64,000 nucleotides of DNA. It comes from Escherichia phage EcoM2. The notes below the pieces were generated by a model. It worked only from the letters and a program-made list of their open reading frames with translations. It was not told the origin of the DNA and made no database searches. Within the stretch, counting starts at the first letter, position 1; every line of letters begins with the position of its first letter. Of the stretch, positions 53,195 through 54,006 are shown piece by piece. Made by a program: the position numbers and the translations under genes. The stretch is from sequence record PQ818761.1; one strand, given 5' to 3'.

Positions 53195-53201
53195 GTTTTG
53201 A

Positions 53202-53274
53202 CAGAAGACCAATTGCAGCAAGCTTAATCTTATTCATCTGACACGAAATCGGACAAAGAAGAGATTTGGTCTGG
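53202..53274 (+). other. candidate structured RNA element, copy 1
   Basis: CAGAAGACCAA...TTGGTCTGG closing stem with conserved TTGCAGCAAG after the 5' strand. Confidence 0.35.
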
Positions 53275-53285
53275 TCATTAAGAAT

Positions 53286-53362
53286 TGCGGGTATAGAGAA
53301 AGGGCGTCTCACATGTCTCATTAGCATGGTATCGGCAGGTTCGACTCCTGCACCCGCCTCCA
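53286..53362 (+). tRNA. tRNA with anticodon CAU (Met or Ile2), non-canonical
   Basis: T-arm GCAGGTTCGACTCCTGC, 3' end ACCCGCC-T-CCA, anticodon stem-loop CATGT-CTCATTA-GCATG; acceptor/D junction does not fold canonically (1:72 mismatch or extra nucleotide). Confidence 0.55.
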
Positions 53363-53368
53363 ATTTTG

Positions 53369-53428
53369 CAGAAGACCGTATTCAGCAACAAAATACTTTT
53401 TGCGGATAAAAGAAAAAACACGGTCTGG
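53369..53428 (+). other. candidate structured RNA element, copy 2
   Basis: CAGAAGACCGT...ACGGTCTGG closing stem (covaries with copy 1), conserved TTCAGCAA. Confidence 0.35.
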
Positions 53429-53439
53429 CAATGTATTAA

Positions 53440-53516
53440 GGTTAGTAAGCACATAAGGTATGTGCGGTCGCCTGTTAAGCGAATGGCACAGGGTTCGAAT
53501 CCCTGACTAACCGCCA
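53440..53516 (+). tRNA. tRNA-Asn (anticodon GUU)
   Basis: Acceptor GGTTAGT/ACTAACC, anticodon loop CTGTTAA, T-arm CAGGGTTCGAATCCCTG, CCA. Confidence 0.8.
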
Positions 53517-53525
53517 AATTTAAAT

Positions 53526-53613
53526 GTGTCGTTATCCCGTAGATGGTAGCGGTGGGGACTGTAAATCCCTTGTCATTGAGACTCGGTAGGTTCGACTCCT
53601 ACACGGCACACCA
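53526..53613 (+). tRNA. tRNA-Tyr (anticodon GUA)
   Basis: Acceptor GTGTCGT/ACGGCAC, anticodon stem GGGGA/TCCCT with loop CTGTAAA, long variable arm, T-arm GTAGGTTCGACTCCTAC, CCA. Confidence 0.75.
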
Positions 53614-53619
53614 AATAAA

Positions 53620-53697
53620 GGTTATGTAGTTTAATCTGGTTAAAATACTCCCCTGTCACGGGAGATGATGAGGGTTCAAATCCCTTCGTAACCGCCA
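53620..53697 (+). tRNA. tRNA-Asp (anticodon GUC)
   Basis: Acceptor GGTTATG/CGTAACC, anticodon stem CTCCC/GGGAG with loop CTGTCAC, T-arm GAGGGTTCAAATCCCTT, CCA. Confidence 0.8.
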
Positions 53698-53784
53698 AAT
53701 TATAATAAGTATTTCAAGATGATGTTTTGAGAGGGCTATTTAGCCCCTCCCTTAAAGGGTTCTTACGAGTATTCTTTAAAGGAG

Positions 53785-53861
53785 CAGAAGACCAAATTCA
53801 GCAAGTACGTATGATATTTTCAAGCCAATTTAATTTTGAAAAAATTTAAAACTTGGTCTGG
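53785..53861 (+). other. candidate structured RNA element, copy 3
   Basis: CAGAAGACCAAA...TTGGTCTGG closing stem, conserved TTCAGCAAG. Confidence 0.35.
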
Positions 53862-53874
53862 CTCAACAGATTTA

Positions 53875-54006
53875 CAGAAGACCGTTTACAGCAAAACTTA
53901 AACAATCTATTTCTCCGGTAAAGAAAAGGCGAAGGTTCGATTCCTTCACTCGGCAGATGTCGAGTTGGTGTAATGGTAGCACTTAAGATGATAAACAACG
54001 GTCTGG
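53875..54006 (+). other. candidate structured RNA element, copy 4, enclosing a permuted tRNA-like module
   Basis: CAGAAGACCGTT...AACGGTCTGG closing stem; interior has T-arm-like GAAGGTTCGATTCCTTC plus ACTCGGC (53931-53954) directly upstream of the complementary GTCGAGT plus D-arm-like TGGTGTAATGGTAGCAC (53959-53982). Confidence 0.35.

Follow-up and report, generated by a model that had tools for sequence, protein, structure and literature searches.

Ro60, a major autoantigen in lupus and Sjögren syndrome, and the Y RNAs have been conserved all the way from bacteria to humans. In the canonical systems the Ro protein binds the conserved motif of the terminal helix or internal loop, and the remainder of the Y RNA tethers PNPase (PMC4201824). 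YrlA, a tRNA-mimicking Y RNA bound by bacterial Ro60, has its domains in the order V-T-AS-D (Chen et al., 2014, PMC4201824), and cleavage by RNase P was shown for the YrlA of M. smegmatis. Phage phiLo encodes a Ro60 that recruits the host PNPase and binds a pair of adjacent Y-like RNAs, which have a motif of a stem and an internal loop (PMC12135203). Here we report on four elements in a phage tRNA cluster which, with a probability of about 0.75, are small non-coding RNA genes of the Y RNA kind and dedicated partners of the Ro60-like protein of the same phage (ORF 51452–52867).

The tRNA region of the window (the whole 64-kb stretch of DNA that was analysed) is 94–99% identical to that of Felix O1-type phages (Felixounavirus), and 312 phage records match it. 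ARAGORN called 25 tRNA genes between 53033 and 58491, on the + strand throughout, with most tRNA–tRNA junctions spanning just 2–10 nt. The ORF for the Ro60-like protein stops 332 nt ahead of copy 1, and the four copies begin 332–1005 nt past its stop codon on the same (+) strand, each flanked at 4–9 nt by tRNA genes or another copy. In a consensus scan the operon was found to be preceded by two near-consensus promoters (Table 1). The cluster also contains an HNH endonuclease ORF; the two tRNA genes on either side of it are only 7 nt apart in one relative (L001), so that the HNH gene is a mobile insertion, and HNH genes occupy other tRNA-cluster junctions in other relatives. A further tRNA-like sequence, at 54727–54805, recurs unchanged in several relatives.

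Table 1. Coordinates of the candidate Y-like RNAs and of other features in and around the tRNA cluster.
Feature	Position	Strand	Details	Basis or score
Promoter-like site, sigma-70 type, upstream of Ro60-like gene	51383..51412	+	TTGACA-18-TAAAGT	Consensus scan, 10/12 positions; match only
Gene for 471-aa Ro60-like protein	51452..52867	+	Predicted helical ring + vWA domain, intact MIDAS (DxSxS..T..D)	
Promoter-like site before tRNA/Y-like RNA operon	52886..52914	+	TTGACA-17-TAATAT	Consensus scan
Promoter-like site, 27 nt 5′ of tRNA-Pro	52977..53006	+	TTGACA-18-TAAAGT with TG	Consensus scan
Y-like RNA 1, 79 nt, between tRNA-Glu and tRNA-Met	53199..53277	+	Outer helix 53199-53202/53274-53277; AGA loop 53203-53205; inner helix 53206-53212/53266-53272; CAGCAA 53216-53221	Fold, covariation, model R2 (distant phages only): 49.1 bits, E 2e-7
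Y-like RNA 2, 66 nt, between tRNA-Met and tRNA-Asn	53366..53431	+	Outer helix 53366-53369/53428-53431; inner helix 53373-53379/53420-53426; CAGCAA 53383-53388	Fold z −2.85; covariation; R2: 53.7 bits, E 2e-8
Spacer between tRNA-Asp and copy 3, 84 nt	53698..53781	+	Three hairpins including GGGCUAUUUAGCCC	−24.7 kcal/mol, z −3.2
Y-like RNA 3, 83 nt, with conserved interior hairpin UUUCAAG...UUUGAAA	53782..53864	+	Outer helix 53782-53785/53861-53864; inner helix 53789-53795/53853-53859; CAGCAA 53799-53804	Fold, orthologues, covariation; R2: 43.1 bits, E 4e-6
Y-like RNA 4, 138 nt, YrlA-like member	53872..54009	+	CAGCAA 53889-53894; V arm 53910-53926; T arm 53931-53947; acceptor-like hairpin (7 bp) 53948-53965; D arm 53967-53983	Fold, orthologues, R2: 40.7 bits, E 1e-5
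Fifth strongly structured RNA, directly 3′ of copy 4	54010..54155	+		MFE −46.4 kcal/mol, z −5.6
tRNA-like sequence	54727..54805	+	Anticodon-like loop CUUCUAA (UCU, Arg); D arm weak or absent; long variable region	Rfam tRNA, 31.7 bits, barely over gathering; not called by ARAGORN
HNH endonuclease ORF	55731..56144	+	Inserted between tRNA-Gly and tRNA-Thr	
Stable hairpin between tRNA-Thr and tRNA-Val	56225..56315	+	Contains box GAAGACCGTAACAAATTCC	−29.4 kcal/mol, z −3.4

An initial annotation of this DNA had described a four-copy family with shared 5′ and 3′ boxes and interiors of about 45 to 115 nt, and our analysis bore this out. Four exact matches to the 5′ pattern GAAGACCNNNNNCAGCAA are present, at 53204, 53371, 53787 and 53877, with no other mismatch-free site in the window, and GGTCTGG is found on the + strand of the window solely at 53268, 53422, 53855 and 54000. 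The joint pattern did not occur in any of 100 shuffles. The sequence CAGAAGACC has five exact matches in the window, four of them within the elements, and the interiors of the four copies measure 45–115 nt. Folding of each copy gave a common design with a 4-bp outer helix, an internal loop with AGA opposite G, and a 7-bp inner helix made of AGACC and two variable base pairs. In all four copies the inner helix is followed by 2–3 nt and CAGCAA, and 3′ of CAGCAA lie the variable interior, an A-rich stretch and then the 3′ helix strand. The outer helix, which sits beyond the AGA/G loop and was absent from the initial annotation, is unique to each copy yet paired (UGAC/GUCA, UUGC/GCAA, GAGC/GCUC, UUAC/GUAA); the UUGC/GCAA of copy 2 becomes UUAC/GUAA in orthologues. 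Two earlier details needed correction. The stem had been described as extended by three complementary bases; two base pairs are indeed present in every copy (AA/TT or GT/AC), but the third pairs in copy 4 only and is unpaired in 13 of 15 distinct sequences. A weaker related box near 56261 turned out to be unrelated, as both CAGCAA and the 3′ box are missing from it and the family model (R2, below) gives no match there. The hairpin that contains this box is kept in relatives.

For the comparative analysis we took the syntenic copies of the window and of its relatives L001–L015, L201 and L205–L207, in total 20 genomes belonging to two genera. All four copies were syntenic in 20 of 20 genomes, one deletion being the sole case of presence/absence. 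Boxes and helices are kept across these genomes and the interiors are rewritten or swapped wholesale, the single-stranded CAGCAA and AGA motifs remaining invariant while the interiors are replaced. Among 15 distinct paralogue and orthologue helix sequences, 92.8% of the cells were paired vs. 79.5% in shuffles (none of 500 reached the observed value), and slid registers were just 21–46% paired. The outer helix was 100% paired with double changes at three of its four pairs, a stronger covariation than in the extension, and two inner-helix pairs alternate AU/GC and AU/UA. One-sided changes in the invariant box were A to G or C to U (AGGCC/GGUCU and AGACU/GGUCU), both of which give G·U pairs. Since such pairs arise on the + strand only, the RNA is read from the + strand. 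Across the wider family described below (62 distinct members, alignment A8 fitted to the structure of the model), the inner helix was 99% paired with compensatory changes at six of seven pairs. The four elements thus have RNA-level structure with covariation and a defined strand, and the earlier view of a base-paired RNA stem, not a protein site, was confirmed. As in Y RNAs, the 5′ and 3′ ends form a helix beside an internal loop. The single-stranded consensus reads A-AG[helix]-(U)UA-CAGCAA...A-rich...[helix]CU-G, with C19–A24 conserved at 93–100% in 63 sequences.

Copies 1–3 have no tRNA-like domain; copy 4 has one, with the V, T, acceptor stem-loop and D order of YrlA. Its interior, arranged as V-T-hairpin-D, includes an anticodon-like arm, the T arm (GAAGGUUCGAUUCCUUC), a hairpin of 7 bp and the D arm (GUGUAAUGGUAGCAC), and the tRNA invariants U8, A14, G18G19, A21, G53, T54-Psi55-C56, A58 and C61 are readable in it. 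Copy 4 is a tRNA body that has its opening where the D and anticodon arms meet, with the acceptor end closed. All arms were retained in nine orthologues, in which three pairs of the acceptor-like hairpin are altered on both sides (ACUCGGC/GUCGAGU, ACACG/CGUGU, ACCCUUC/GAAGGGU); the hairpin was wholly rewritten twice, with compensation. The Rfam tRNA model matched copy 4 partially (22 bits, under its gathering score of 29), and none of the four copies was called as a tRNA by ARAGORN. A functional permuted tRNA was rejected as an identity for copy 4, since the acceptor is closed by a 4-nt loop, the anticodon-like loop CCGGUAA has no U33 and neither ARAGORN nor Rfam called it a tRNA.

The RNA directly 3′ of copy 4 (54010–54155) is supported by twelve orthologues at 30 pairs, among which 7 show compensatory changes. 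A hairpin in this RNA, CAGAC-CUUAAGCAA-GUCUG, reads AAACC-CUUUAGCAA-GGUUU in Moogle-like phages; the AGCAA loop and GUCUGG tail of the hairpin echo the module of the four copies, and R2 did not match the RNA. The Ro-like protein may bind this RNA as well. In a locus like that of Salmonella phage SP116 (L004 8457–8641), the T arm of copy 4 forms the point of fusion with the 3′ portion of tRNA-Lys. This natural deletion, which ran through homology between T arms, removes the rest (3′ half) of copy 4 together with the 54010–54155 RNA. Their loss in this phage indicates that both are dispensable for propagation.

Pfam detected DUF2828 and DUF7788 in ORF 51452–52867 and nothing else, and its PHROGs label is 'RNA-binding protein'. 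Sequence searches of the PDB (phmmer with the protein, hmmsearch with a 61-sequence profile) matched no Ro60 or other chain, so that at the level of sequence profiles the protein joins neither Pfam TROVE nor the solved Ro60 chains. An AlphaFold2 model was built from 61 homologues (pLDDT 90, pTM 0.89), and when it was compared with the PDB by Foldseek, the top 11 matches were all Ro60/Rsr over the full length. The predicted structure has the ring, vWA domain and MIDAS of Ro60/TROVE proteins, and the MIDAS residues are invariant. The modelled fold thus shows the ORF to encode a Ro60-like protein, the link to Ro60 running through fold comparison alone. Mycobacteriophage homologues with 34% identity carry the annotation 'Ro-like RNA binding protein', and tblastn matches to the protein come from 709 phage records, among them Felix O1, KVP40, Aeh1-like and Listeria P100-like phages as well as Campylobacter, Staphylococcus and mycobacteriophages.

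The location of the four elements near a gene for a Ro60-fold protein and on its strand is the one typical of Y RNAs, and we examined it across the protein family in 68 other loci: 65 from IMG/VR, with homologues 39–46% identical, and three GenBank phages. A first descriptor scan was over-permissive and noisy and was tightened, with strand, reversal and complement controls. The strict descriptor gave 39 instances in 30 of the 65 loci, on the gene strand and at <1 kb, vs. 3–5 in the minus-strand, reversed and complemented sequences. A MAFFT alignment (A2) of 13 distant tRNA-like members misaligned the 3′ strands and was replaced by two successive covariance models. The initial annotation had proposed a covariance-model search of related phages as a check; with the first model, R1, built from Felix copies 1–3 only, all 22 matches in distant loci lay on the gene strand. 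The second, R2, was built from distant matches only, yet it is not fully independent because these had been chosen by the Felix-derived model. Applied unfiltered to the whole window, R2 recovered exactly the four elements at 41–54 bits, the next best match having 16.7 bits, and no further copies elsewhere in the 64 kb on either strand. At E ≤ 1, all 66 of its matches were on the gene strand, in 46 of the 68 loci, and most were no more than a few hundred nt away from the gene. No tRNA gene was present in the fetched DNA (about 13 kb) of 34 of these 46 loci, which links the module to the protein and not to tRNA clusters. Co-location of the RNA module with the DUF2828 protein family is therefore family-wide and strand-specific. 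A scan of IMG/VR for the exact pattern AGAAGACCNNNNNCAGCAA gave, among the matches listed, mostly single chance matches.

Several of these loci resemble the one in the window. In Klebsiella phage FBKp34, three CAGCAA RNAs lie directly 3′ of the gene, one of them permuted and tRNA-like (Rfam YrlA 39.6 bits); a 114-nt 'tRNA-Asp' of the same phage (L203 7003–7116) consists of a normal tRNA body with a hairpin-plus-CAGCAU module between the D and anticodon arms. In Mycobacterium phage Krypton555 the Ro-like gene is directly followed by three CAGCAA RNAs, the middle one tRNA-like (YrlA 38.3 bits). Other 'long tRNAs' of 110–120 nt were observed at L037 7895–8137, L043 9751–10136, L050 10184–10302 and L066 9787–9905. 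They are called by Rfam or annotated as tRNA-Asp and are ordinary tRNA bodies, some with CCA, in which an inserted hairpin and (U)UA-CNGCAA module follow the D arm and precede the anticodon or variable region. They represent the non-permuted topology of the Y-like RNA, and both topologies occur together in L037.

Another observation concerns Listeria phage LP-083-2 (L204), where a ROOL RNA (2429–2980; 87.4 bits, gathering 99.1) lies ~1 kb upstream of the Ro-like gene, two R2 module matches (3618–3770) just upstream of it, and an RtcB RNA ligase gene at 6815–8026; the neighbourhood is RNA-repair-like. In a Listeria phage study, abundant RNAs beside an Rsr-like gene were independently speculated to be Y RNAs (PMC12282133).

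The distribution of the module also bears on what else the elements could be. Phage tRNA clusters elsewhere counter tRNA-targeting defences, and the elements might accordingly be tRNA-mimic decoys or anti-defence RNAs (e.g., bait for host anticodon nucleases or for tRNA-sensing defences) which act independently of Ro, the linkage reflecting a shared operon only. The position of the genes in tRNA clusters and the tRNA origin of copy 4 and many relatives, some of them chimeras with real tRNAs (L203, L037, L043/L050/L066), agree with such a role. It is nevertheless unlikely, as a tRNA-like part is missing from copies 1–3 and from most distant members, conservation falls on the closing module and not on the mimic, and the linkage to the protein gene, on its strand, persists where there are no tRNA genes.

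That the copies are passive spacers or processing hairpins of the tRNA precursor, aiding RNase P or RNase E and leaving no stable or functional product, would fit their distance of 4–9 nt from tRNA genes or one another. We regard this as quite unlikely, because the module follows DUF2828 genes in the 34 loci without tRNA genes, spacers do not need CAGCAA and AGA to stay invariant amid swapped interiors, and most tRNA junctions in the cluster, at 2–10 nt, manage without such a hairpin.

Cis-acting operators, through which the Ro-like protein or another factor would regulate neighbouring genes, are very unlikely for the window, where the four copies lie downstream of the gene, among tRNA genes, and there is no ORF for them to control. 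The number of copies per genome (four to five) and the tRNA-like domain of one of them also speak against operators in place of trans-acting RNAs. Elsewhere, arrangements that would fit operators were seen. In a 244.8-kb, KVP40-sized phage (L016 5960–6005), the module GACATT-tta-CAGCAA-...ataaac-AATGTC overlaps the Ro-like gene at both its ribosome-binding site and its ATG, which suggests translational autoregulation through an RNA mimic, and in several other loci modules of 42–70 nt lie 50–100 nt upstream of the gene.

Lastly, DNA-level repeats (miniature inverted-repeat elements, recombination or homing-endonuclease targets, or decaying tRNA pseudogenes), for which one could cite the terminal inverted repeats, the gain and loss of HNH genes in the cluster (that at 55731–56144 is missing in L001) and the recombination of copy 4 with tRNA-Lys in L004, are most improbable given synteny in all 20 related genomes of two genera with one deletion aside, single changes that are G·U-compatible on one strand only, the absence of further copies from both strands of the window, and distant members that share structure and single-stranded motifs but not helix sequence. 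The dispersed copies, presence/absence polymorphism and strand-symmetric conservation of mobile elements were thus not found. Rfam scanning of the region at E ≤ 10 placed no family on the elements, overlapping them only with Dicty_Class_I_RNA (24 bits) and the partial tRNA. Ribozymes (hammerhead, twister, HDV-like) and riboswitches were discarded for want of Rfam matches, and intrinsic terminators because the elements have no U tract and no terminator-like site on the + strand and their 3′ flanks are not T-rich.

We thus favour Y-like RNAs serving the Ro60-like protein, and for these we infer transcription, processing, physical binding, the motif contacted and downstream function as follows. 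The RNAs would be co-transcribed with the tRNAs from the promoters just 3′ of the Ro60-like gene. Their tight bracketing by tRNAs suggests release by tRNA-processing enzymes, as 66–138-nt species, as RNase P acts on the tRNA that follows and the preceding tRNA is trimmed at its 3′ end. From the 7-bp acceptor-like stem of copy 4, cleavage by RNase P is predicted as well, as in M. smegmatis YrlA. The ends of each RNA would then pair into the outer helix, the AGA/G loop and the 7-bp helix starting with A-U and G-C, next to an internal loop whose 5′ strand carries YUA-CAGCAA and whose 3′ strand is A-rich. By analogy with the canonical systems, this constant terminal module is the predicted docking site of the Ro-like ring, and the variable interiors (hairpins in copies 1–3, the tRNA mimic in copy 4) may be handles for other factors.

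The initial annotation had not recognized the family as a known tRNA-cluster element. This is correct insofar as none of the GenBank records examined annotates the elements, but the neighbouring gene and the related phages resolve them as Y-RNA-like. Literature searches on DUF2828 and on Felix O1 with RNA-binding protein yielded no description of these RNAs; some mycobacteriophage members are possibly among the 22 phages of Chen et al. (2014). Current phage annotations skip these RNA genes or overlay them with spurious small ORFs. There may be more to many phage 'tRNA clusters' than their tRNA genes. The family, with its predicted new recognition motif, resides in a classic, genetically tractable Salmonella/E. 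coli phage and offers four paralogues and a natural series of tRNA chimeras, a simple test bed for how Ro-like rings choose RNAs. It also ties the DUF2828/DUF7788 'domain of unknown function' family to a concrete candidate RNA ligand. A broader and tentative proposal, which we consider doubtful when its parts are taken together, would place DUF2828-type Ro60 homologues, together with CAGCAA-module RNAs, in a distinct and widespread class of phage ribonucleoproteins with tRNA-built scaffolds, a role in the tRNA pool during infection and autoregulation. If so, RNA scaffolds would have been made repeatedly from the phage's own tRNA genes, in permuted and non-permuted form; the particles could serve, e.g., tRNA quality control, repair or protection against host tRNA-targeting defences; and in some phages the protein would regulate itself via a mimic of the module in its own mRNA leader.

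Of the known systems, the YrlA/YrlB RNAs bound by Rsr (PMC4201824; RF02553) are like the phage RNAs in lying within ~1 kb and on the strand of a gene for a Ro60-fold protein, in having several paralogues per locus, and in pairing their ends into a stem beside a conserved purine-rich motif. Copy 4 shares with YrlA the V-T-acceptor stem-loop-D order and the tRNA invariants, and YrlB corresponds approximately to the hairpin copies 1–3. They differ in the motif, the canonical Ro-binding sequence (GNCGAAN0-1G in bacteria, GGUCCGA in vertebrates) being absent near the 5′ end of the phage copies, which read NNNCAGAAGACC...CAGCAA with CAGAAG at the helix base; the invariant AG at the helix base and UA-CAGCAA resemble the canonical motif without identity. 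Rfam YrlA matched no copy, copy 4 included, at E ≤ 10, and the RF02553 gathering threshold of 69 bits was reached by none, with relatives at 38–40 bits (L203 39.6, L202 38.3). Moreover, the partner is a divergent DUF2828/DUF7788 protein and not Pfam TROVE, the genes lie inside a tRNA operon, and the phage family includes non-permuted tRNA bodies with the module between the D and anticodon arms. The Yrl1/Yrl2 of Thermus phage phiLo and its Ro60 (PMC12135203; PDB 9KOP, 9L5Y) differ in having a CGAA motif and RNAs upstream of the gene, and binding and PNPase recruitment are experimental there. Metazoan Y RNAs (hY1, hY3, hY4, hY5) are alike in their four paralogues, conserved terminal helix with internal loop or bulge and differing interiors, but have no demonstrable sequence homology, and RNA polymerase III transcription and La binding are inapplicable to the phage. 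The conserved 5′ strand CAGAAGAC resembles CCGAAGG of hY1, a resemblance that is a lead only. In permuted and split tRNA genes (Cyanidioschyzon merolae, Nanoarchaeum), as in copy 4, the tRNA 3′ half (T arm and acceptor 3′ strand) precedes the 5′ half (in copy 4, acceptor 5′ strand and D arm), but in the phage no BHB motif or archaeal/eukaryal splicing endonuclease is expected and no CCA is encoded. The permutation of copy 4 is thus better read as the YrlA topology than as a permuted tRNA gene.
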